Below are positions 1,043-50,150 of a stretch of DNA of 64,000 nucleotides, in pieces; the first letter of the stretch is position 1, and each line of letters opens with the position of its first letter. The DNA is taken from assembly GCA_951406725.2 (NCBI GenBank), contig OX597814.1, positions 53,134,001 to 53,198,000 of the forward strand, read 5' to 3'. The translations under genes were made by a program, and so were the position numbers. Under the pieces are notes generated by a model. It worked only from the letters and a program-made list of their open reading frames with translations, had not been told where the DNA came from and did no database searches. This DNA comes from Octopus vulgaris (lineage: Eukaryota).

Positions 1043-1649
1043 ATATACATTAATATGTATGCGTATGTGTACATGCATACAAATATATTCGTTTATATTC
1101 AATATAAGCAAATACATATGTACACATGTATGTGTGTATACTTATGTATATATAACGACACACGCACGCACATACATATACATATGTGTATGTGTGTGCG
1201 TGTGCGTGCGCGTATATGTGAGGGCGGCGAGCTGGCAGAATCATGTACACAGTGCATTTCATTCGTCTTCATATTTTGGATTCAAATTCCGCCGACTTCG
1301 CCATTCATTCCTTCGGGGTCGATGAAATGAGTATCAGCGAGGCATGAACATCCCTCCCCTTGAATTTCAGGCCTTGTACATAAATAAATACATACACATG
1401 TATGTATTTATTGGGTTGGAAAGGAAATCTTGTCTCACTTGTGACATGATCACTTCGAGGGCACTTTCTCAATTCTGACAGTAAAATAAGCATTAATTTT
1501 TTTACATTCTAATGCCGTTTCCTTCTTTGCAAATTATTTTAAACCATAGTAGTTAATTTTGTATCATTTTTACTCTTTTAAAATGAGTTTAGATCAGACC
1601 GATTCCACACCCTGCATGCTGTATGAATTCAAAAGGAAGTTTTCAGCAA

Positions 1650-2090
1650 TTTAAACAAGAAGATAAATTCATTTTCTTTATAAAATGAAGATTTAAGTGT
1701 TCGGGAAATTTTTCTGTCGCAGGTTCTCGTTCTGGACGACCACGTTCTGGTAATATTGTTCTGAAAACTGTTGGTGATAAAAATGTAAAGACTGCACGAG
1801 TATTTGCCAAACAGTTTAACGCAAGTCACGCTTCAATCATAAAACACCTTCACGGACTAGGAAGTGTCAAAACTTGGTCAGAGGGTCATTCATCATTTGA
1901 TTACTTCTCAACTTAATCAAAGCTCGTCACTGAAAAGCAGACTTGCTATCGAACCTTTTAGGGTAGAATCATCCCAAGTGTTAAAAAGTGTCTTTTCTAT
2001 AATCATGTCCAACGAAAACGAAAATGGTTAGCATCCAGTAGAAATGGACAGTCCATCCCTAAACCAATACTACACACTCTGCAAGATAAT
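1650..2090 (+). pseudogene. Degraded mariner-type transposase fragment
   Basis: Interrupted translation gives RIIPS..K.LFYNHVQRKRKWLASSRNGQSIPKPILH, matching the mariner 'I.T.DEKW..Y.N..RK..W......PK..LH' segment. It has frameshifts, and I found no TIRs. Confidence 0.55.
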
Positions 2091-3625
2091 ATTTATCCGC
2101 ATTTAAATGTAAATCTCCTGTTAGAAAAAAATAGTGTTGCAGTAGATACCTTGAAAAAACTCATATTGGCTTTCGGTGCAAAATGCGGTCTTGTTTTTAT
2201 TGCTAGCAGGGAGATAAATCGCCGCCATCTCCAGTGCCGAGGTCACCAGATCATGTGATTTCGACCTTCCTTGGTCTTGTCAACGATAGACACTTGACTG
2301 CTAGAGATAGCAGCGTCTCGTCTCCCCACCAGTGATATATAGAAAATCAGTGCCAGAACAGGGGCTGGTGTCGCAGGTCATCCATCCATCCATCCATCCA
2401 TCCATCCATCCATCCATCTACCCATCCCTAATTTAGCGAAGTAAAATGGAGTGAGCGAGTTCCTTTATTTCATTGATTTACAGTTGTTTCATCAAATACT
2501 GATCTCATGAGCATATTCAATAATATATGCAATCATTAATTCATGAGATGTCCTCGACACAAATTCAAAGATAGATTCTTCAAATCATGCATAAATGTTA
2601 TTTGCCATTGAATACAAGAGTCAACTATAATTCATGCCCATATCTAGTTGAGCACATTTAAATGGTTAAATGGTTACCTTAACATATCACGAGCCAAAAA
2701 AGAAAAAAATCAAATCGTCGTTTGAGTTGACCGTTTAAGAAGAATTGGTGAATCATAAAAAGAAAGAAAGAATAAAAGCATAAAAGAAAAGTTTTGGCTT
2801 TTAGAGAGTATAAAAAATTATAGTCATTTGTTAGTTTCTATCTTAAAAGTACTAGCAACGAAATTCTTCAAATTTTCTTTAGTGCTCTTGGTAAAACTTC
2901 ATCCTACCTGCCATTCAGACAACGGAATGGTAACACAAAATTGTATTTTTAGCAAGCTGAAATATATTGACTGCCACTATATAGCAGCCAGCCATAAAAT
3001 GACACTACAGTAGTCGACAGATATTTACCACAGAGTCTCTGTAGTAAATATCTGCCTGTGTGTATATATATTTATATCTCTATATATATGACTTACACGC
3101 TGCGGAGACTGAGAATATTCTCTTTCATGTTTAGGTAATGTAATTGTAAAGTAATCTAAAAATTGTCTTTTGAATCCTTATGTATACTTATTCTTATTTT
3201 CGTGCGCACCTGAGTTTTGGCCTTGTTTGAAATGATGTTCAATCGCAAAATATGTCCTTAGGCTTTTGGCACTGAAACTAGTGACTTTTGATAAATTTGT
3301 CTTGGATATTGTTTTATTCTTTTATTCATTTATTCTTTTACTGTTTTCAGATTTTGGACGCGGACATGATTAAAGACCGTCTTTTAAATTTCGAAGTTAT
3401 CAATTGGACACCGGTATTTTGACTGAGATTTATCTCATCGACCTTGGAAGGCAAAATGTCTAAATTGTCGTAGGCGAGATTTGGATGAGGAGCATAAAGG
3501 AGCGTAGTATATCGCAAGGTATTTTGTTCGACTTCAACTAAATATTGCCAATCGACAGTAAACGTATTTCCATTTATTAGATAGTGTTGATTCCCTTACA
3601 AAATACGCTTCCATGTTTACTGCTT

Positions 3626-4030
3626 TATCTTTTAGTTGTTTCATTCATTGGACTGTAGCCATATTGGAGCACCTCTTCGAAGGATCTTGGTCGAAACAAA
3701 TCGACCTCATTACTTATTTTAAGTGTGTACTTATTATATCAGTTTTTTTGTCGATTCGCTAAGTTACGAGGGCGTACGTAAGCCAATACTGGTTGTCAAG
3801 TCGTGGAGTAGGGACAAGCACTTACACAAAAATACTCATGCTCACGCACACACGCACGCACACGGCAAGCTTCCACACAGTTTCTTCCTACCAAATTCGC
3901 TCTCAACGCATTTGTTGGTCCAGGGCTATAGTAGAAGATACTTACCCAAAGTACCGCATAGTGAATCTGAACCGAAAATCACATGGTTGCAAAGCGAGTT
4001 TCTTTACCTCACAGCCATGTTTGCGCCTTG
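3626..4030 (-). mobile_element. SINE family B (tRNA-like head, CORE-like box), diverged copy
   Basis: Reverse-complement similarity to the copies at 22136-22526 and 30447-30868. Confidence 0.7.
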
Positions 4031-4989
4031 TATAGTTAATCTAAAAACAGTTGCCTTCAAATCCTCACGCCATCAAATTTCCATATGCTCTTTGGTTTTG
4101 ATTTCATCTGCTCAATGTTAAACATACACACATACACGCTCCCCCATCCCACCACACAAAATAAACTTTTCCATTAATATCGAGGCATGACTATCTAGTT
4201 ATCCGATCAACTCAACCTATTTATTTAGCGTGCAAAGCGGTCGACGCGTTTACTCTTGACGCAATTCTCAGTCAGAATTAGAGCGATACAGTGTGACACG
4301 GTCGAACTCTAAGTACATCCCATCCAATGGGCTTCTAAACACAAACCATTTCCCCATTTCCACTCACAAGGTATATGATAAAGATGTATGGCATTTGTGC
4401 AAATATTTTTTGCGAAACTTGAGTATCGTACCCCGAGGATCAAACTCTGAGCCTAAAGGCTGTAAAGTGAACTTTTTATCCAACCATTCATACCTTTATA
4501 TGTGTACATATGCGTGTTTGTGCGTGTGTGTTTGTGCTTATTGAGTGATAAGTAAGACCTAAAACACTGATTATACATAATCATATAGCATGGTCTTGCA
4601 GGACTGAACACTTACAATCTGTCAGCATATATAACATCAAATCAATTATAAACCTTTTATCTGTAACAGTTTAATGGCACAGAAAATAAGTGCTGATGGA
4701 AATACGCACGGTAACACAAATTCTTAAAAAAAAAAAAAAATTATATGTGTAAATTACTCGAGACATAGGATGCAATATAGTTAAGTAAATTTTAATTTTG
4801 CTTCTCACCACGAATTGGAAAAATTCACCATTTAACTTAACATCTATGAACTTTATTTAAAGATAATGGTTACAAATTTTGGCACAAAGCCAGTCACGCT
4901 TTATTTTGTATATGATAGAATTTCCATATCCCGTCGAAGACAACGTATGAGTGTTCGGTTTTTACTGAACGACTTGCAAAAATTAATTT

Positions 4990-5490
4990 CTTTATTGCTC
5001 ACAAGCATAGAGAGGACAAACAAGGACAGACAAACGGATTAAATCGATTACATCAACCCCAGTGCGTAACTAGTACTTATTTAATCGACCCCGAAAGGAT
5101 GATAATAATAATCATTTCAAATTGGGGAAGGTGGAGATGAGTCGATTACGTCGATCCCAGTATTCAACTGGTACTTATTTTATCGACCGCGAAAGGATGA
5201 AACGCAAAGTCGACCTCGGCGGAATTTGAACTCAGAATGTAACGGCAGACGAAATACCTATTTCTTTACTGCCCACAAGGGGCTAAACACAGAGATGACA
5301 AACAAGGACAGACAAACGGATTAAGTCGATTACATCGACCCCAGTGCGTAACTGGTACTTAATTTATCGACCCCGAAAGGATGAAAGGCAAAGTCGTCCT
5401 CGGCGGAATTTGAACTCAGAACGTAACGGTAGACGAAATACCGCTAAGCATTTCGCCCGGGGTGCTAACGATTCTGCCAGCTCGCCGCCC
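4990..5490 (-). mobile_element. Compound SINE family A cluster (tRNA head GGCGGCGAGCTGGCAGAATCG; Meta-like domain GTCGACTTTGCCTTTCATCCTTTCGGGGTCGAT)
   Basis: Several overlapping copies. The B-box-like GAGTTCAAATTCC is present, and the same sequence recurs many times in the window. Confidence 0.85.
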
Positions 5491-5559
5491 TATGACCTGT
5501 ACAAATTATCTGTTTATAGTGATCAAATGTATTTGCTGTACAATAAAGCAGGAGAAGAT

Positions 5560-5890
5560 GGATGAAGAGCGGGGCGATGGGTCACGTACTCAAGGACAAA
5601 TGGTGAACTCGGCCGCGTCCCACGGTAATGGCCGTGATGGCACTGGTGCGGACAATGGCCAGTGACACTCGCTGCAGCAGTCATACAACCTCGCGGGGTT
5701 CATTCCTCCGACGAGTTACCGTTATCCCTATTTTGTGGAGGACATCGTCTGTACGGGGCCCTAGAACACCTGATGTCTCGACAGCGACCGGTACAAACCG
5801 ATAGCGGCCGGTCAGGCCTCTTTATCTATTGATTTTTCTCTATTCTGCGTTACGGGCGGCGACAACTAGGTTTGCAGCCGATGCAGCAAG
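5560..5890 (-). pseudogene. 3' fragment of a CRE-like non-LTR retrotransposon (restriction-like endonuclease domain)
   Basis: Minus-strand translation AARNAE*RKINR*RGLTGRYRFVPVAVETSGVLGP...IG...R...LLQRVSLAIVR matches the 'AE..K..KY..L...F.P.AVET.G..G ... QR.S.A' RLE signature. It has in-frame stops. Confidence 0.75.
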
Positions 5891-6644
5891 GTAAGTGATA
5901 GCATGTAAGTGCGTATGTGTGTGTGTGTGTGTTTTTGAAAATGAATCAGATATAATAATAAGTTTCCCTAAACGGCATCAGTTTATTAATCTTTATCATT
6001 TCTGTAGCTGGAGTTATTTTTGAAATAGTCTTGGAAAAGAAAATTACATCTCCCGGAAAGAAGAAAAAGTTATCAAGCTTTGAAAGATATAATTATCTTT
6101 ATTTACATCTATCCAGACTGATAGAAAGTATATAAAACTTAACAGCTTGAGTTTAAATACACCAGCGAAAACTGAAAATAGCGATAGGAAATTAAAGAAT
6201 GACGCTAAATTTAAATATGGTTAATGAACAGATTCTTCAGAAAAGAAAACAGAATTTTAATAGGACTGACATGAAATAGCATAAAAATATTCTTTGCTAA
6301 GTGAGAAAAGGAAATGACAAATTTTACATAGTGATATTCTTGATGCATTACAGCAACGCAAGTTTGTAAACTATTTAAACAGAAAACAAAAGTCACCATG
6401 CCAACCGTCAACACGACGTGAACATTAAAATGCCATAAATGCTATCTATTTAGCAGCATTAATTTGAACGAATACACGCAATATTTCTTAGAAAGAAGTT
6501 GTTGTTAGTGTTGGATCGAGTTTGCCTTTCATTCTCTATCACATTTAGTCGAGTTATTACGCCGAAGATGATTGACAGTGACGTTCTTGTTAACCTTATT
6601 ACTCAGAGTTGTGACCATTCCTCTGGAAATAATTCGTTCTACTA

Positions 6645-6848
6645 CAGGCAAAAAGCCTGAAACTTTTGTGGAAAGGGTTAGTCGATTACATTGACCCCAG
6701 TGTTCAATTGGTACTTATTTCATCGAACCCCGAAAGGATGAAAGGCAAATCCGACCTCGGCAGAATTTGAACTCGGAACGTAAAGATGAACGAAATGCCG
6801 CCAAGCATTTTTTCCGGCGTGCTCACGATTCTGCCAGCTTGTCGCCTT
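6645..6848 (-). mobile_element. SINE family A copy
   Basis: Reverse complement of the family A sequence seen at 25829-26059. Confidence 0.85.
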
Positions 6849-7357
6849 CTTCTGGAAATAATACCAGTTGCAGTAAATGACCATCAGTTCAGGAAAAGAA
6901 AGAAATCTTGCACATTCGAATAAAGCATGAGTGCAAACCATCCTGTTCCGCAAATTTACCATTTGCGCAGCTGTCATATAAGTAACATATTAGGGTTTCA
7001 CATCACTTTATCCCTTCTACTGACAGTTGTTCCAACGTCTTCATCTATCAAAGAAAAATATCGCGCGCTAAATATACTCCAAGCAGGTTTTATACGCTAG
7101 AACGAAGATTGGACTTCGCAGTCCTCCTCCTCCTCCCCTCCCCTCCCCCCTCCCCCTCCTCCTCCTCTATTCCCATAAATGAAAATATACTGAGAACCAG
7201 AATCGCAATGCTGATGACGTCATACCTGCTGTTGATGACTTTTTTGACCAACAGGATGAAAGCTTCGATAGGAAGGGAACTATGATGAAAAAAAAAACAA
7301 CCTCATTTGGTCATATTCTTTAAGAATATCTTGGAAATTTTTCAACCGACCCTTGTA

Positions 7358-7416
<59 letters not shown>

Positions 7417-7427
7417 TTATCTATCCA

Positions 7428-7505
<78 letters not shown>

Positions 7506-7735
7506 CGGATGGCTTTCTATCATTTTCCATCTATTAAATCCACTCACAAGGCATTGGTCGGCCCGAAGCTATGGTAGAAGACACATAAAGTACCACGAAG
7601 TAGGAGAGAATAACCTAGAACCATGTGGTTGGGAAACAAATTTCTTACCACACAGCCATGATTGCGCAACAAACGCTTAAAAATGCAAACATATCTATGT
7701 ATAAATATATACATATATGTCTGTACGTGTGTGTG

Positions 7736-7772
<37 letters not shown>

Positions 7773-7872
7773 TACACACACACACATACACACATATATG
7801 TACATACATACATATACACATATGCACATACATACATACATACATACATACATACATACATACATACATACA

Positions 7873-7906
<34 letters not shown>

Positions 7907-7908
7907 CA

Positions 7909-8432
7909 TATCGAAAATCTCCGAGTATAATCCGCATTTTTTCCCAAAATTTAAAGGTCAAAATCCCTAGTGCGTACTATATACGAGGTTAAAAATGAAA
8001 AATATTTTCTAAGAAATGTCCTAGTCTCTATTTGCTCTCCGGCAATGTTTATTCAGACGCATTTTGTGATGTCGGGCGCGAAAATACCTTAAGCTAAGTC
8101 TGAAAGCAATGAAGACATAAAAGAATCATCCATAACTTGCAGTAAGCAACATTTATTAAACGTTATTACTGTTATTACTGTTATTTCTTTATTTTCTGCA
8201 AACAAAATGCACAAAAAAGCCGCACGTTTGCATTGTTATATATATACTATAACAATAAAGGACGTTACCGTATACATTTTTACAAACCAAGGACGTTATA
8301 TAGACCTCCTTGACTCAAGTTGGAGAAGGAGTGCGTATTATACACAAGGTTTAGGTTTTTCAGAGGTACAGCCCCCTAAAAATCCCCTGCGTATTATACT
8401 CAAGAGCGGACTATACTCGAGGATTTACGGTA
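7909..8432. mobile_element. Non-autonomous Tc1/mariner/pogo-type MITE
   Basis: Imperfect TIRs TATCGAAAATCTCCGAGTATAATCCGC and GCGGACTATACTCGAGGATTTACGGTA, TA flanks, and internal GTGCGTAYTATA subterminal repeats. Confidence 0.7.
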
Positions 8433-10985: not shown

Positions 10986-11017
<32 letters not shown>

Positions 11018-11019
<2 letters not shown>

Positions 11020-13044
11020 GATTAGTAATATTTTTGGTAGAAATGACTAATTGTCCCTCTTAGCGTTTGGCATGTATGTATAGTGCCTCTGGCATGTATG
11101 TATAATGCCCTCTATATATAAATTAATATGTTCAATAAGAAATAATTATTTTCGAAATTTTTTCTGTTATGAGGTTTTTACGCTATCTACCTGACAATTT
11201 CTTGGTAAGTTTTCCTTATTAAGTAGTTGTCCTTAATTGCTAAATTTTTATTCCGAAAAAACTTTTCCTCTCCCGAAATGCAATTCGTAAAAGTTTGCCA
11301 TTTAACAGGATGTAATATATGTAAACTCACCCATGTGCTTCGTTGATGTTGAACAGTTAGCTGATCGACTTAAGCGGGGCAGGGTCGTTGTTTATTTATG
11401 ATGCATTCTGGCCTGCTGATGAGTACGTAAGTATGAAATCACTGTGATACAGGTCTATATTTTTTAAATGTCTTACTTTGAAAAATTGCATTCGGTGGGA
11501 TTAGTAATATTTTTGGTAGAAATGACTAATTGTCCCTCTTAGCGTTTGGCATGTATGTATAGTGCCTCTGGCATGTATGTATAATGCCCTCTATATATAA
11601 ATTAATATGTTCAATAAGAAATAATTATTTTCGAAATTTTTTTCTCTTATGAGGTTTTTACGCTATCTACCTGACAATTTCTTGGTAAGTTTTCCTTATT
11701 AAGTAGTTGTCCTTAATTGCTAAATTTTTATTCCGAAAAAACTTTTCCTCTCCCGAAATGCAATTCGTAAAAGTTTGCCATTTAACAGGATGTAATATAT
11801 GTAAACTCACCCATGTGCTTCGTTGATGTTGAACAGTTAGCTGATCGACTTAAGCGGGGCAGGGTCGTTGTTTATTTATGATGCATTCTGGCCTGCTGAT
11901 GAGTACGTAAGTATGAAATCACTGTGATACAGGTCTATATTTTTTAAATGTCTTACTTTGAAAAATTGCATTCGGTGGGATTAGTAATATTTTTGGTAGA
12001 AATGACTAATTGTCCCTCTTAGCGTTTGGCATGTATGTATAGTGCCTCTGGCATGTATGTATAATGCCCTCTATATATAAATTAATATGTTCAATAAGAA
12101 ATAATTATTTTCGAAATTTTTTTCTCTTATGAGGTTTTTACGCTATCTACCTGACAATTTCTTGGTAAGTTTTCCTTATTAAGTAGTTGTCCTTAATTGC
12201 TAAATTTTTATTCCGAAAAAACTTTTCCTCTCCCGAAATGCAATTCGTAAAAGTTTGCCATTTAACAGGATGTAATATATGTAAACTCACCCATGTGCTT
12301 CGTTGATGTTGAACAGTTAGCTGATCGACTTAAGCGGGGCAGGGTCGTTGTTTATTTATGATGCATTCTGGCCTGCTGATGAGTACGTAAGTATGAAATC
12401 ACTGTGATACAGGTCTATATTTTTTAAATGTCTTACTTTGAAAAATTGCATTCGGTGGGATTAGTAATATTTTTGGTAGAAATGACTAATTGTCCCTCTT
12501 AGCGTTTGGCATGTATGTATAGTGCCTCTGGCATGTATGTATAATGCCCTCTATATATAAATTAATATGTTCAATAAGAAATAATTATTTTCGAAATTTT
12601 TTTCTCTTATGAGGTTTTTACGCTATCTACCTGACAATTTCTTGGTAAGTTTTCCTTATTAAGTAGTTGTCCTTAATTGCTAAATTTTTATTCCGAAAAA
12701 ACTTTTCCTCTCCCGAAATGCAATTCGTAAAAGTTTGCCATTTAACAGGATGTAATATATGTAAACTCACCCATGTGCTTCGTTGATGTTGAACAGTTAG
12801 CTGATCGACTTAAGCGGGGCAGGGTCGTTGTTTATTTATGATGCATTCTGGCCTGCTGATGAGTACGTAAGTATGAAATCACTGTGATACAGGTCTATAT
12901 TTTTTAAATGTCTTACTTTGAAAAATTGCATTCGGTGGGATTAGTAATATTTTTGGTAGAAATGACTAATTGTCCCTCTTAGCGTTTGGCATGTATGTAT
13001 AGTGCCTCTGGCATGTATGTATAATGCCCTCTATATATAAATTA
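11018..13044 (+). repeat. Tandem array of ~4.2 near-identical 479/480-bp units, each with a hammerhead ribozyme (retrozyme-like)
   Basis: The unit start GGGATTAGTAATATTTTTGG occurs at 11018, 11497, 11977, 12457 and 12937. Both ends abut (TA)n. Confidence 0.95.
11410..11455 (+). ncRNA. Type I hammerhead ribozyme (identical copies at 11890-11935, 12370-12415, 12850-12895)
   Basis: GGCCTG-CUGAUGA-GTAC(gtaa)GTAT-GAAA-TCAC(t)GTGA-UA-CAGGTC: complete core, stems I to III, AUA cleavage triplet. Confidence 0.85.
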
Positions 13045-13061
13045 TATATATATATATATAT

Positions 13062-22948: not shown

Positions 22949-23735
22949 TGAGGGTGCGCGCGTGTGTGTGTGTGTGTGTGTGTGCGTGGGCGTGAGTGTG
23001 TGACAGGAAAGTTTTTTACGACGAATATAAGTAGCAGAAAGATAAGACAGTAAGGTGTGATTTGAGGGAGATTTGGCTGCTATTTCTACCATGTCTAGCT
23101 GCCATGTAGGGGTCTCCCTCATAGGCTCATACATACATATATACATAGATAAGACAGTAAGGTGTGATTTGGGGGAAATTTGGCTGCTATTTCTACCAGG
23201 TCTAGCTGCCATGTAGGGGTCTCCTCATAGGCTCATACATACATATATACATAGATAAGACAGTAAGGTGTGATTTGGGGGAAATTTGGCTGCTATTTCT
23301 ACCAGGTCTAGCTGCCATGTAGGGGTCTCCCTCATAGGCTCATACATACATATATACATAGATAAGACAGTAAGGTGTGATTTGGGGGAAATTTGGCTGC
23401 TATTTCTACCAGGTCTAGCTGCCATGTAGGGGTCTCCCTCATAGGCTCATACATACATATATACATAGATAAGACAGTAAGGTGTGATTTGGGGGAAATT
23501 TGGCTGCTATTTCTACCAGGTCTAGCTGCCATGTAGGGGTCTCCCTCATAGGCTCATACATACATATATACATAGATAAGACAGTAAGGTGTGATTTGGG
23601 GGAAATTTGGCTGCTATTTCTACCAGGTCTAGCTACCATGTAGAGGTGCCCCTCATTGGCTCATATATATATACATACATAAAACAGTAAGGTGTGATTT
23701 GAGGGAGATTTGGCTGCTGTTTCTACCAGGTCTGT
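22534..23735 (+). mobile_element. Probable Helitron-like element carrying a minisatellite
   Basis: It starts A|TCTCTTATTATAAAAG, like the Helitron 5' end at 24505. I did not identify a 3' CTAG end. Confidence 0.4.
23040..23733. repeat. 107-bp minisatellite, ~6.5 copies
   Basis: The unit GATAAGACAGTAAGGTGTGATTTGGGGGAAATTTGGCTGC... repeats, and the ORF track shows peptides repeating every 107 bp. Confidence 0.95.
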
Positions 23736-24504: not shown

Positions 24505-24899
24505 TCTTTATATATAAAAGTGAGGTTGTGTGTCTGTCTCCTACGATTTAGATTCCTAACTACTCCCACATTTTGCGGTGCAGTTTAACCAAAAGCGGGT
24601 ATCTTATAGTCGTGATTCATATCGAGACCGTCTGGGTATTAGCGCGCGTCTACGATGAGTCTACGATTTAAAAAAAAAATTACCATCAATTTTTCCCATT
24701 TTTAATCCATTTTTGACATATATAAGGGAAGTAACTCTCTAAAATTTATTATTAAATCTCAGAACGTAAAAAGCTACAGTAACACCCCTCCCCCTTTGTG
24801 GTTAGCCATATTGAGATGGCTATTATACTTTACATCTCTAAAAATGCTTATATAATTATTTCCCTTACAAACCCGAGCAACGCCGGGCGATACTGCTAG
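24505..24899 (+). mobile_element. Non-autonomous Helitron
   Basis: 5' end A|TCTTTATATATAAAAG, subterminal hairpin CCCGAGCAACGCCGGG, 3' end CTAG|T, and no TSD. Confidence 0.85.
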
Positions 24900-41012: not shown

Positions 41013-41778
41013 ATTATTAATAATTGTGATTTCTAAATATCTTACAATATTTGGTTTCGTTTTACGTTCTGAGTTCAAATTCCACCGAGGTCGTCATTAC
41101 CTTTCATTCTTTTAGGGTCGATAAAATAAGTACCAATTGAGTGCTGGGGTCGATATATTCGACTTATCCTCTCCCCCCGAAAATGCTGGCCTTGTGCCAA
41201 AATTTGAAAGTAATATTTGTTTCATTCATCTACATTCCGTGTGTGCGAATCCGGTGAAGGTTTGACGTTTTATTCCGCCGGAGCCGATGAAAAGTGCCAT
41301 TAACTCAAGGAATCTTTACAATTAGCTATAAACTTACTCCAACACAAAATTTCCCCATTTTTTGAGCTTAATTAAGAAATTCTCAGAAAAATAGCTGAGG
41401 GGTCCAATGACCAACATCTATTCAGTCATAAGACTAATGTCTTTATGACTTCCAAATATATCACAGTATTCAAATAGATCGCAGTATCATGTAACTTCAA
41501 TCAGCAATCCATTCAGTTTTATAGGTAGACAGAGTAGACCGCGGTTATGAGATTTCAGTGGATTTACCTGGGGAACTCAGAGCGTGTGTTGAAAAATAAT
41601 ATGCAAAATAAATATTGAATAATAAATCGTCATATGCACGGTGATTCAAAAATATGACTTACATATTTATTCTTAATACATTCCGGCAGATTCGAAGGCA
41701 AATATACTAATCGCTGCTGTGTTCGTCACAGGAGAACAGTTTCTCCTTTACGACTAAGCGTTCATTAGCAGAAGGGAT

Positions 41779-41822
41779 TCTGGAACGCCAGTGTTTCGAC
41801 ATGTTGTGCCTCGTCAGTCAGA
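41779..41822 (-). ncRNA. Type I hammerhead ribozyme within a diverged ~280-bp tandem duplication (~41632-42030)
   Basis: Minus strand: TCTGA-CUGACGA-GGCA(caaca)TGTC-GAAA-CACTGGCG-UU-CCAGA, with one mismatch each in stems I and III. Confidence 0.65.
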
Positions 41823-42889
41823 TATATCCGATGGACTTGTTTATAATTTCAGCGTACAAATTATTCACTGATCCAAACAGATATCTGCCAACCGATGATA
41901 AACTGTCATATGAACGGTGAACAACGAGATTCGAAACGGGGATTTGCATATTTAGTCTGAATACGTTCCGGGAGATTAGAACACATATAAACTATTCGCT
42001 GTTGTGTGTGTCACAGGAAAACAGATTTTCAATGTTGACAATGTTACAGATGAGACTTAGGCATTCTTTAACTTTCGATTCAAACACTTTTAATAACCGA
42101 CTGAAATTCATTTTACCTGGCAGGGTAACTATGATTCATTTCTTCAAAGGACGCAAATTTATAACAAGGCTTGAAACATGAGGCATTCTTTTTGTTCAGT
42201 TTGATTCATGTTTCTACTGAAAATATAAACTGAATGTTCTTATTCTTTCTTTGCTAGTTAAGTAAATGTTTATGCTTAGTTTATAAGGTATCTTTTTTCT
42301 TCCTTCCTTCCTTCCTTCCTTCTCTCTTTCTTTCTCTCTTTCTTTCTCTCTCTCTTTGTTTGTTTGTTTGTTTCTTTCTTCCTTCCTTTCTTTCTTTCTA
42401 TTAGTATTATTTGACAACAATTAAGAAGCGCAAAATGCTAAATAACCTTTTAAAGACCAGTACGATAATCAGAGTCACAGGGGTGCTAGGAAATGGGCTG
42501 CATGCTACATACATACATACATACATACATACATACATACATACATACATACGTACGTACGTACATACATACATACATACATACATACATACACACACAT
42601 ATATATATTTTACACACACATATATATATATACATGTATGTATATATAATATAATGTAAATACGTTTATATATGTGTGTGTATATATATATATGAGAGAG
42701 AGAGAAAGAGAGAGAGAGAGAGTGTGTGTGGTTGTATAGTGTCAACATAACGTGACAGTCCCGTATGGGAATTACACCACCGCTGTTTAGCCCTAGGAAG
42801 CATCGACGCTTTCTTTCGTCTTTGACACATTTCCTGTGTCCTTATATTTGTGAAGGGGAGGCAAGCACCCCCACCAGCCAAGATTCACA

Positions 42890-42936
42890 CCTGAGGACAT
42901 GTATGTTTCTGGGTCTTAACTCGTCATCAGCCCAAG
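42890..42936 (-). ncRNA. Type I hammerhead ribozyme (GUC) in the inverted pseudo-LTR
   Basis: Minus strand: CTTGGG-CUGAUGA-cGAGT(taag)ACCCa-GAAA-CATACATG-UC-CTCAGG. Confidence 0.75.
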
Positions 42937-43220
42937 ATAAGACCCAGAAACATGCATGTGCTCAGGTGTGAATCTTGGCTGGTGGGGGTGCTTGCCTCCC
43001 CTTCATAAATATAAGGATACAGGAAATGTGTCAAAGCCGACAGGAAACGTCGATGCTTCCTAGGGCTAAACAGCAGTGAGGTAATTCCCATACGGGACTG
43101 TCACGTTATGTTGACAGTATACAACCACTCTATCGCTCCACCACCGCTCATGTCTCTTTGAAACATTTAGAAATTTTATATTTATAATTACGGTGACCAG
43201 TGAATAGATTTCACTGTAAA

Positions 43221-43262
43221 TATATATGTTTGTGAAGGCTAGACAGGCACGTCAGTCAGTAG
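43221..43262 (+). promoter_or_regulatory. Putative TATA + initiator core promoter for the element ORF
   Basis: TATATAT at 43221 and TCAGT at 43252 are ~31 bp apart, about 130 bp upstream of the ATG at 43382. Confidence 0.4.
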
Positions 43263-43381
43263 ATCTTGCTACATGGAAGTGTTCGTGTCGGTTATTTTGT
43301 ATTGCGTTTGTGCGTTGGATTTGTTGATTATTGTTGTTGAGAACTGTTGCGTCGTGTTGAATTGTTGGAATTTTGTTGGGT

Positions 43382-44763
43382 ATGCAAGCCCAAACTTATG
43401 CGGGAGCAGCAGGCAAAAGCCTGGCTGCAAAAGAACTACAGTTGGAAGAAATAATTATCGAGAAGGAAAATTTGAGGAAATACTACGACAGCTTCAAGAA
43501 GGAAGGTGACTGTCTGAGGGTTACACCACCTGAAGACGAAGTGAAAGAAGCGGAGAAAAAAATCATAACATACAGAACGTGGAATGTGGTCTCACAGAGA
43601 ATAGAAGTAGCAGAGGTGGAAGAGATTGAGAAATGTCTACAGGAAATTAAAGGAAGAACTACCTTCTAGAATAGAGGTAGAAAATACGCTACGGTAGACG
43701 TTCGTTTTGAAAATGAAGACGAAGCTAAGAGAAACGCCACGACAGTATTGAAATCGGAAAAATGGGTTTTACTTTCTAGTTATTGTGGAAAAAGAGCAGT
43801 GAGAATACGGATAAGCAAAATCCCACCGGAACTTGATACCGAAAGAATAGTAGCTGCAATAATCTACAACTGTAAAGAGAGCGTGGACATTCTTAAGGTG
43901 GAAAAGTCGAAAGAAATAAACTGGTGGGGTTATGCGGTGCAGGCTTCGGTCCACATAACCATGCCAGATTTGTATAACATCCCGGAGGAGTTGGTGTTCC
44001 CCGACGAGACACGACTGAAAGTCGTGGTGGAGGGGAGACCTCCAGTATATTATAAATGTAGGAGCAGAGGGCACATGAAGGATGTGTGTCCTCAAAGAGA
44101 AATACAAGAGAAGACGATAACACTGGAGGAAGGAATGGAGACTTTGACAGAAGAGTTAGAAAAGGAGAATGTGGAATTGCAAGCGGAAGAGGAAATCGTG
44201 ATAACAGATAATGTGGAAAGTGGCGACGAGTTGGTGAAGGAGAAAGAAAAGGAAAGAACAGAAGAAAAAGAGGATAGAAAGCAAACATGGGTGGAATCAC
44301 CACCCAAAGACCAAAAAAAGAAAAAAGCTAAAAAGAAGTCTGCCGACGAGATAGAGGATCGAACGCACGAAGGGAGAGATACAGCAACGAAATTGAGTGA
44401 AGTTTCAACGTGGGAGGAAACGAATAAATGGTCAACTAAAGTGGAAGAATGTCTGAAAACATGCAAGGAAGGAGGAAGACCAAAAGGAAAAAATGTCAAA
44501 GCCGTAATGTTGTACAAAAAGGATAAAGAAATCGAGAAAAATTAGCGATAATGAAAAATCTAACGAGAGTGAAATTGAATCCGAAGATATACGATAACCA
44601 AATAAAGGCTGCAATTGTGGATAAAGAGACGGTAAATAAATTAATAAATTTGTTTTCAAATATAGCTGTGGGCATAGCGCACTACGTTCGATATGACAGT
44701 TTGCCCGGCGTTATAGAACAGGATGAATTACTCGCTTGCATTGCTGACGAACGCCACAGATAG
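43382..44763 (+). pseudogene. ~460-codon ORF1/gag-like nucleic-acid-binding protein (RRM-like segments, zinc knuckle, acidic/lysine-rich region), slightly disrupted
   Basis: ORFs 43373-43669 and 43748-44545 share a frame (one TAG between them), and 44551-44763 joins through a 1-nt frameshift in an A run. VVEGRPPVYYKCRSRGHMKDVCP is a CX2CX4HX4C knuckle with the first C replaced by Y, as in L1/Tx1-type ORF1. Confidence 0.75.
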
Positions 44764-44973
44764 TACAATTGTAATTGTAAATGAAACTGCGAGCTTGGGG
44801 GGGGGGGGGGCTCGTAAGCCATTTAATTTAATTCATTGTTAATATTTCATTTCATATCATCCTTTCTGTATTTTTGTTATATGTACCCCATGTCCTGTAT
44901 TGTATTGTTATGTCCCCTCTTCATTCGGGCCATTGTGTCTTTGATAAAAGTTTCAGTCAGCAGATCTCACTAT

Positions 44974-45020
44974 CCTGGGCTGATGACGGGTTAAGACCCA
45001 GAAACATGCATGTGCTCAGG
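44974..45020 (+). ncRNA. Hammerhead fold in the 3' pseudo-LTR (GUG triplet, probably non-cleaving)
   Basis: CCTGGG-CUGAUGA-cGGGT(taag)ACCCa-GAAA-CATGCATG-UG-CTCAGG. Confidence 0.7.
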
Positions 45021-45232
45021 TGTGAATTTTGGCTGGTGGGGGTGCTTGCCTCCCCTTCACAAATATAAGGACACAGGAAACGTGTCAAAGCCGACAGGAA
45101 GCGTCGATGCTTCCTAGGGCTAAACAGCGGTGGTGTAATTCCCATACGGGACTGTCACGTTATGTTGACAGTATACAACCACTCTATCGCTGCACCACCG
45201 CTCATGTCTCTTTGAGACATTTAGAAATTTAA

Positions 45233-45290
<58 letters not shown>

Positions 45291-45304
45291 GAATATATAT
45301 ACCG

Positions 45305-49091: not shown

Positions 49092-50150
49092 GTTGTTTCA
49101 CATGAAATGTCGCTTTTTTAATTACTTGTTATTTCAATCATTTAAAAACTTAATTATGGTAATGGTTTTATTGACATCAGAACTGTTCAAAGATGGTTCC
49201 AAAACTCTCGTTCAGGTGATGATAGCCTTGAAAATAAACTAGCGCGTAGGCCAACATCATTTATTCGGCATGATGGATTAAATGCTTTGGTTGAACAAAA
49301 TCCAAGAACAAAGGTTCGAAAACTTTCATCAGAACTCCAAACATCTCGCACAACTGCTTTTGGACACCTGTAAAAATTTGGAAAAGTCAAGAAAACAGAT
49401 AGGTTTGTTCTACATCAATTGAACGAGATTTAAAAAAGCAGACGCCTCGAAATGTGCTCCTTGTTGCTTTCTTGACTGGAAAAAGACCATTTTTGCATCA
49501 AATTATTACTTGTGATGAGAAATGGATACTCTTTGACAACAGCAGGAGAACAGCACAGTGATTAGATGCAGGAGTGTCACCTCAGCACAACCCAAACCCA
49601 CCATTGCACCCTAAAATGTTAGTGGTCACTGTATGGTGGTCTGCGAAGGGAGTTATTCATTATTCATTTTTGCAACAAGGAAAAACGGTAACAGCAACAT
49701 CATATTGCCAGGAAATTGATTGTATGCATGAGAATTTGAAAAAGAAGCAACCCAGACTAGTGAATAGAGATGGTCCAATTTTGCTTCACGACAATGCACG
49801 TCCTCACACTCCTCAAGCTACGGTACAGAAGTTGCAAAGCCTGAATTATGAGATTTTGCAACATCCTTCCTATTCCCCTGATATCTCTCCTACTGATCAT
49901 TTATTTAAGCATTTTGAGCTTTTCATAAGCAATAAAACATTCTTAAATAGAGAAGAGGTAATTGAAGCACTCGGACGGTTTACCACAGCGGAAGATGAAT
50001 TACTTTTAAAAATGGAATATATGACACAGAGAAACGTTGGGTAAACGTCATAAATGAACATGGATCATACTTTGATTAAATAAATCAGTTCTGTAACATT
50101 TCTGAAACATTTTTACTTTTCAAATACGACATTTCATGTGAAACAACCCA
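49089..50150 (+). mobile_element. Mariner (DD34D-type) transposon, internally deleted, with a pseudogenised transposase
   Basis: TIRs GGTTGTTTCACATGAAATGTCG and CGACATTTCATGTGAAACAACC. Motifs ITCDEKW, LLHDNARPH and HPSYSPDISPTD are present, with stops. Confidence 0.92.

Follow-up and report, generated by a model that had tools for sequence, protein, structure and literature searches.

A probable ORF1-only half-LINE inside a hammerhead retrozyme, at a favoured insertion slot, in the Octopus vulgaris genome

Layout of the locus

In this study, a 64,000-nt stretch (hereafter the window) of the 2.8-Gb, microsatellite-rich genome of Octopus vulgaris was analyzed (GenBank assembly GCA_951406725.2, contig OX597814.1, positions 53,134,001 to 53,198,000). 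We focused on a locus at positions 42728-45236 of the window, where a decayed open reading frame (ORF) lies among repeats that carry a hammerhead ribozyme motif. Our analysis indicates that this ORF very probably belongs to a HAL1-like, Tx1-type half-LINE, i.e. a derivative of a long interspersed nuclear element (LINE) that has kept only ORF1, and that this cassette lies within a hammerhead retrozyme, at a site that such cassettes prefer. A first-pass annotation of the window had described an inverted, a truncated direct and a full 3' pseudo-long terminal repeat (pseudo-LTR) which, together with a body, stand between microsatellites, and had read the whole as a chimeric coding retrozyme. The arrangement itself was confirmed, and its parts are listed below.

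42728..42939, minus strand: inverted partial copy of a type A retrozyme; core complete (42930, minus strand), GTC triplet
42938..43266, plus strand: direct retrozyme unit, 5'-truncated, without CTGATGA core; GTG at 42958-42960
43196..43202, plus strand: word ACCAGTG, resembling a proximal sequence element (PSE), 58 nt upstream of the putative start; predicted promoter role
43252..43266, plus strand: target-site duplication, 5' copy, 15 bp
43267..44952, plus strand: candidate ORF1-only half-LINE (non-autonomous L1/Tx1-type retroposon), 1,686 nt
43382..44763, plus strand: decayed ORF1 of ~460 codons; predicted RRM-RRM-CCHC, then a charged linker and a C-terminal domain
44764..44952, plus strand: cassette 3' untranslated region (UTR), ending in a decayed AATAAAGA signal and a short T tail
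44953..44967, plus strand: target-site duplication, 3' copy, 15 bp, 27 to 13 nt before the hammerhead core
44953..45236, plus strand: 3' retrozyme unit, ending where such units usually end; hammerhead motif of type I with palindromic helix III and core at 44980
45012-45014, plus strand: cleavage triplet of the 3' retrozyme unit, GTG
45237..45301, no strand: (TA)n tract, the target, adjoining the 3' end of the retrozyme

The direct 5' unit is made of a repeat copy (42938-43186) followed by an 80-nt tail (43187-43266). The three repeats (inverted arm, direct copy and 3' copy) are 95%, 95% and 91-93% alike, and repeats and ORF body together are flanked by (GA/GT)n and (TA)n microsatellites. The ORF body is bracketed by a 15-bp duplication, alike at 14 of 15 positions between its two copies, which the first-pass annotation had not mentioned. 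Removing ~1,700 nt from the locus leaves an ordinary retrozyme locus. Queries for the reverse transcriptase-endonuclease (RT-EN) of Penelope-like elements (PLEs), for RTE and for Tx1-type ORF2 found no match in the window, in agreement with the earlier statement that no RT is present.

ORF1 starts at the ATG at 43382 and, as previously annotated, suffers from one stop (an in-frame TAG at 43667-43669) and one frameshift (a 1-nt gap at 44537, relative to a natural intact copy). Intact relatives, whose existence had been anticipated, were found at other loci of the genome (e.g. L016 and L018, loci being designated here by L and a number), among many copies: a search with the ORF body gave 2,672 candidates, of which the best 40 were scored. 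The zinc knuckle proposed for the ORF holds for these relatives, where Pfam reports zf-CCHC (just under the cut-off in L016 and L018), but not for the window copy, in which a Tyr stands in place of the first Cys (44048-44050). Among the aligned ORF1 relatives, 16 of 19 matched zf-CCHC. An Atlas search with ORF1 returned CCHC and ZCCHC3-type clusters (0.90-0.92), a sequence search of the PDB matched the knuckle alone, and a protein database search gave nothing at E 0.001. The predicted structure (mean predicted local distance difference test score, pLDDT, of 81) resembles tandem-RRM proteins, the best structural match having a Z of 8.9 and a root-mean-square deviation of 2.5 over 78 residues. 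As judged from the pattern of codon changes, the cassette ORF1 is under purifying selection, which had also been predicted. Omega, the ratio of nonsynonymous to synonymous rates, was 0.16 for changes common to at least 3 copies vs 1.15 for singletons (RRM-CCHC part, p 7e-21), and there were 0 stops among shared changes vs 18 among singletons (32 rows).

The cassette and its partner LINE

Host repeats of the ORF1 cassette comprise several repeat A subtypes and a distant relative, repeat B. At both cassette junctions, a 13-17-bp stretch is duplicated that matches the local host subtype in 20 of the 24 rows that have a core downstream. This score exceeded the best of 20 shuffles, with three loci entering the count twice; the window row was marginal in this test, with 12 vs 11. 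Cassettes without any repeat, and with an 11-21-bp duplication of their own, were found at L073, L074, L076, L318, L329, L336 and L349, three of these seven being 5'-truncated. One of them, L349 (G000:C18:49160150-49162250), has the same 3' end and lies inside a U1 gene cluster, outside any U1 gene.

A genome-wide exact search for the last 21 nt of the cassette returned 81 ends, some of which come from sister families sharing the 21-mer, and 29 of which are represented by 3' junction sequence only (one with 2.1 kb). Most distinct ends (65 of 80) are at the retrozyme slot, either directly before a hammerhead repeat (55) or before a target arm (10), which is then followed by another element or a break (7 sorted by eye). 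The remaining 15 adjoin unrelated DNA. When the 5' side of orphan ends from this census was examined (n=10), 6 had their own duplication and 4 had none. The cassette bears the marks of target-primed reverse transcription expected of a HAL1-like element, namely a fixed 3' end, 5' truncation and duplications. Dozens of dispersed copies with the same two ends, several old paralogue families and purifying selection together point to an independently replicating family.

Similarity among cassettes was uncorrelated with that among their hosts (18 loci, rho 0.115, p 0.23), and host labels, assigned by eye, required 14 changes on the cassette tree, against a minimum of 7 and a mean of 20 for shuffled labels. 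The cassette appears to have changed hosts many times, with some clustering. Junction-specific patterns gave 6 and 8 matches only. Within 2.5 kb downstream of ORF1, no ORF2 was found in the 44 rows at 60% identity or more, and one was found in 2 of 74 rows at 36-59% identity (overlapping loci being retained in these counts). For the wider family, 42 rows had a located 3' end: about 4 preceded an A or B repeat, 18 had a duplication, and 31 of the landing sites were single, mostly unrelated to one another. Landing sites of the wider family (L209-L263) often open with TCAGT- or AGTTGAG-like words, resembling starts of other repeats; we take the TCAGT-like words to recall the Pol II initiator.

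Differing cassettes or LINEs are also stacked at single sites, with the target arm between them (L066, L071, L259, L361 and L372). In L066 (G000:C12:46641500-46651499), three ORF1-only paralogues, with 41%, 77% and 49% identity to P0003, stand head to tail in one B repeat, and the chain repeats sequence from just upstream of the hammerhead core. In L259, a cassette and then a two-ORF LINE share one B repeat, and in L361 and L372 the cassette end and the target arm are followed by the start of such a LINE.

The ORF2 of this LINE has APE, RT and zf-RVT domains, its best PDB match being human L1 ORF2, and its ORF1 is 29% identical to the window protein (E 4e-40), which bears out the annotation of the latter as L1/Tx1-ORF1-like. 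It came to light in a search with a diverged paralogue, which had given 8,144 candidates, with 150 scored and 60 loci examined. In 10 of 20 fetched regions, a sample biased towards one query, an A- or B-type repeat comes after the LINE 3' end at the same slot, and 17-bp duplications surround LINEs in L307, L309, L310 and L312. Compared by eye, the last ~50 nt of the cassette resemble the 3' ends of full LINEs, with which they share short motifs and an end made of AATAAAGA plus tail. The closest named relative of the LINE RT, among the 120 homologues listed, is from Argonauta hians (63%); a named Tx1 reference was absent from these 120. The partner LINE seems to be of Tx1 type, a label given from its domain set, its CCHC ORF1 and its targeting. 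The proposal that RT is borrowed in trans agrees with these data, the likely donor being a related LINE and not a Penelope element.

Full LINEs also form young head-to-tail arrays of units 98-100% alike in L295 (G000:C11:29.50 Mb) and L306 (C3:20.82 Mb), with periods of 5,276 and ~5,522 nt, respectively.

The host retrozyme and its insertion slot

When the repeat was the only query, 2,081 candidates were obtained, 40 of which were scored; nearly all of the best 30 loci were without ORF. In many of them, a 354-nt non-coding unit that ends on (TA)n is arrayed in tandem or in inverted orientation; this unit takes in the 80 nt after the 5' repeat of the window. Judged by its sequence, the host repeat is a non-LTR retrozyme, i.e. 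a non-coding tandem unit of 150-400 nt with a type I hammerhead motif. Hammerheads were read by eye from core words and stems. The 3' pseudo-LTR had been annotated as full and hammerhead-bearing: core and stems are there, but the triplet is GTG and Rfam reported no hammerhead in the window element. Folding of the monomer was weak (z -1.8 and -2.7), and helix II is closed by a C-A mismatch in 43 of 51 copies. A GTC triplet is present in 30 of the 36 family copies compared, and GTG was seen only in the two direct copies of the window locus. By the NUH rule for hammerhead cleavage, a triplet ending in G does not cleave. Since the 5' direct copy has no core and the 3' copy has GTG, the ~2.05-kb ribozyme-to-ribozyme RNA predicted earlier is not expected here, and the window copy should, by the usual rules, be unable to release it. 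In a host subtype found at L016, L017, L020, L030 and other loci, many copies have CCGATGA as 3' core, the 5' core of L016 being CTGATGA.

It has been argued that non-LTR retrozymes derive from Penelope pseudo-LTRs (bioRxiv 10.64898/2026.07.22.740005). A Penelope partner of repeats A and B was searched for among 6,136 candidates, the best 150 being scored, and none of 30 GIY-YIG loci matched these repeats in its 1.5-kb flanks. Among 17 wider loci, one candidate, L136, has a B repeat 1.3 kb downstream; it was rejected as a chance neighbour because ~40 near-identical copies of the family end 570 nt before the B repeat. Also seen were two Penelope-type RT-GIY-YIG families (L128 744-4883; L145-L174), both young and with numerous nearly identical copies; one of them has a 333-codon frame overlapping the start of its 781-codon ORF, and a TTGATAA variant of the hammerhead.

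The word A[TC]CAGTG is found 57-59 nt before the starts of 4 U1 and 2 U2 genes of the same genome, and 55-60 nt before the first duplication bases in 9 repeat copies from 7 subtypes. Target sequences vary widely among repeat subtypes, while the distance from the word is constant. Moreover, a cassette (L019) and a LINE (L308) are headed by a U1 5' end, and the array junction of L306 holds a U2 5' end (these ends were checked against Rfam matches); the orphan L074 is headed by the target sequence of repeat A. Because the word stands at the same distance from the slot as from U1/U2 starts, and because relatives of the cassette carry U1/U2 5' ends, targeting likely follows transcription starts. 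The retrozyme tail would then contain a small nuclear RNA (snRNA)-type Pol II promoter from which the cassette is transcribed, with insertion occurring 10-20 nt after the predicted start. In L308, the U1-headed full LINE (1401-8178) lies between two inverted U2 genes.

Elsewhere in the window, two 103-nt repeats 285 nt apart (41643-42030), with a hammerhead-like minus-strand core at 41817 and a weak Rfam Hammerhead_3 match (E 0.14), are probably another, unrelated retrozyme dimer. A young array of a 480-nt tandem repeat (11017-13049; 4.2 copies, 99% alike) lies between (TA)n tracts, a 107-nt tandem repeat occupies 23040-23733 (6.5 copies, 96% alike), and a short piece at 24771-24835 is 82% like repeat B. 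A 160-aa frame at 49562-50044 is presumably a fragment of a mariner-like transposase.

Competing readings and known systems

If the half-LINE reading is right, the ORF1 cassette would enter the retrozyme via target-primed reverse transcription, with endonuclease and RT likely supplied by a related two-ORF L1/Tx1-type LINE. This LINE likely aims at the transcription start of the predicted snRNA-type promoter in the retrozyme tail. The host promoter would transcribe the cassette, copies elsewhere carrying a host or a U1 5' head, and ORF1 would coat its own RNA and recruit the ORF2 of the LINE. Once inside, the cassette could spread with the repeat through Penelope-type copying.

Several observations speak against this scheme. 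In L125, a 676-nt inverted arm comprises ORF end, UTR and repeat; it matches the direct 3' end at 98% identity and stops where the repeat usually does, on (TA)n. An inverted arm with cassette and repeat (248 nt, 96%) is likewise present in L326, which is a sister of the window copy and shares its junction, and a less clean composite arm exists in L022. Four copies (L127, L324, L325 and L344) are cut within the cassette and have neither host tail nor duplication upstream, and some pairs such as L012/L015 share both junctions, as composite copying predicts. In the cassette tree, host labels keep a clustered distribution, none of 200 shuffles needing as few as 14 changes. Finally, ORF1 is only ~30% identical to that of the LINEs, and rows with ORF1 alone branch separately from those bearing ORF2 (with one apparent exception, L248), which leaves these LINEs as candidate donors. 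Inverted and cut composites fit Penelope-type copying of read-through RNA, and later deletion or LINE 3' transduction could explain some of them; composites likely move, as passengers. For the window copy, whose duplication is kept and whose inverted arm is without cassette sequence, divergence is similar for the cassette (96% to L014) and between the repeats (95%), and we see about even chances for direct insertion and for arrival as a passenger with the repeat.

Such composite arms and duplication-free truncated copies, among which L344 ends at the usual repeat end on (TA)n, would also be accounted for if repeat and ORF were one non-autonomous Penelope-type transposition unit borrowing a Penelope RT. 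The Penelope-like layout and (TA)n target, the private GTG common to both direct window repeats, and the clustering of the window, L005 and L014 in one host subtype (support 91/89) point the same way. We nevertheless hold this coding retrozyme to be unlikely, given the repeat-free cassettes with their own duplications, the host switching, and the full LINEs present in the same slot. A or B repeats follow only about a tenth of the located wider-family 3' ends (the ~4 of 42 rows above), selection on ORF1 is explained by LINE-type transposition, and, in the loci compared, neither repeat A nor repeat B had a linked Penelope ORF. As a general rule it is refuted, since the cassette has its own ends and repeat-free copies. 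What remains of the first-pass proposal is that a minority of copies are composite; the repeats do not form the termini of the coding element, because the cassette has its own ends and duplications, repeat-free copies and a LINE-type ORF1. The annotation had also stated what would speak against it: homologues of the ORF lying upstream of an RT-bearing ORF2, and a pseudo-LTR association unique to this locus. Homologues (~30% identical) do precede an RT ORF2, but the association with the repeats is far from unique.

We regard as highly improbable that the cassette is an accessory module of a longer autonomous chain of Penelope or Terminon type, in which ORF1 and RT cassettes are strung between hammerhead repeats. 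The three diverged ORF1 paralogues within one repeat in L066 recall such a chain, as does L210, where an ORF1 is followed by a PLE RT, and a zf-CCHC ORF upstream of a PLE RT has a precedent in Chlamys-2_cBra (PMC8557442). However, members of the octopus stacks are separated by the target arm alone and not by hammerheads, and the RT present in chains is of LINE type (L259). As for L210, a single case in 60 loci, its PLE ORF begins at residue ~149 of a cut ORF1, like a later 5'-truncated insertion. An equally slight chance is given to an internally deleted, dead LINE without independent life, the slot being recognized by DNA sequence alone. A loose target motif around (A/G)CTAGC(A/T)GG or TACCTGG can be drawn, and Tx1 endonucleases are described as sequence-specific (PMC4640811); yet dozens of dispersed same-ended copies, several old paralogue families and purifying selection do not suit a dead element, and subtype targets differ widely while their distance from the promoter-like word is fixed. 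Sequence recognition of the slot may still contribute.

Beyond the half-LINE reading, a broader three-tier parasite system can be put forward, tentatively. A promoter stolen from an snRNA gene would drive the retrozymes; a Tx1-type LINE and its ORF1-only satellites would find the start by position and not by cut-site sequence, tethered to the promoter complex, perhaps through ORF1; and passengers would be spread further by Penelope machinery. Against the promoter-based part, here as in the half-LINE reading, stand the absence of the word before all 7 orphan sites, its presence in 12 of 73 wider-family rows vs a 7% background, and its absence upstream of the U1 piece of L308; in addition, +1 was placed by eye in the repeats, on a small sample.

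With these results, an apparent class of protein-coding retrozymes is removed and replaced by a nested system that can be tested. Should the promoter reading be true, it would name the promoter of animal retrozymes, which the cited parts of the retrozyme literature do not give, and it would provide an example from nature in which the targeting of an APE-type LINE is linked to transcription starts, the numerous target variants serving as built-in controls. The composites offer a route by which Penelope ends can acquire a LINE ORF1, a possible explanation for PLEs that have a zf-CCHC ORF upstream. For repeat annotation, the locus is a warning that pseudo-LTRs flanking an ORF need not belong to that ORF. 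No published description of a cassette-in-retrozyme combination was found in the literature, Repbase and Dfam being outside the scope of this search.

Among known systems, the passages cited here describe animal non-LTR retrozymes as non-coding (PMC7229834; bioRxiv 10.64898/2026.07.22.740005) and the hammerheads of PLE pseudo-LTRs as type I with a palindromic helix III (PMC4209133). The host repeat resembles animal retrozymes in its ~354-nt non-coding unit, its type I hammerhead with palindromic helix III, its tandem and inverted copies and its (TA)n. It differs from these published accounts in its predicted promoter and its resident LINE, and its self-cleavage is putative. Penelope-type ends with zf-CCHC or accessory ORFs, and non-autonomous pLTR elements, are represented by Chlamys-2_cBra, MRC1 (PMC8557442) and Terminons (PMC6431247); Chlamys-2_cBra keeps its RT, whereas the octopus CCHC ORF appears as a LINE-derived insert with its own duplication.

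The cassette itself is closer to HAL1, HeT-A and Ag-Sponge, the ORF1-only non-autonomous LINEs of the L1, Jockey and CR1 clades (PMC5786205). Like them, it encodes one ORF1-like protein kept by selection and has no ORF2; it has its own 3' end, which by eye looks like that of the putative partner LINE. Unlike them, it would come from a target-preferring octopus LINE of Tx1 type, with 65 of 80 ends at one retrozyme slot, and it ends in a short tail after AATAAAGA instead of poly(A). The octopus system as a whole also recalls the crocodilian elements Tx1-Mar, Tx1-8_Crp, Tx1-4_AMi, Tx1-9_AMi and SINEU (PMC4494074), and Keno (PMC4640811), in that insertion occurs into transposons or U2 genes, with tandem stacks around a duplication and U1/U2 heads. 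In the octopus, however, the target is a Penelope-derived retrozyme together with the 5' end of U1/U2-like units, the dependent element encodes an ORF1, and a promoter-like word at a fixed distance links the targets.

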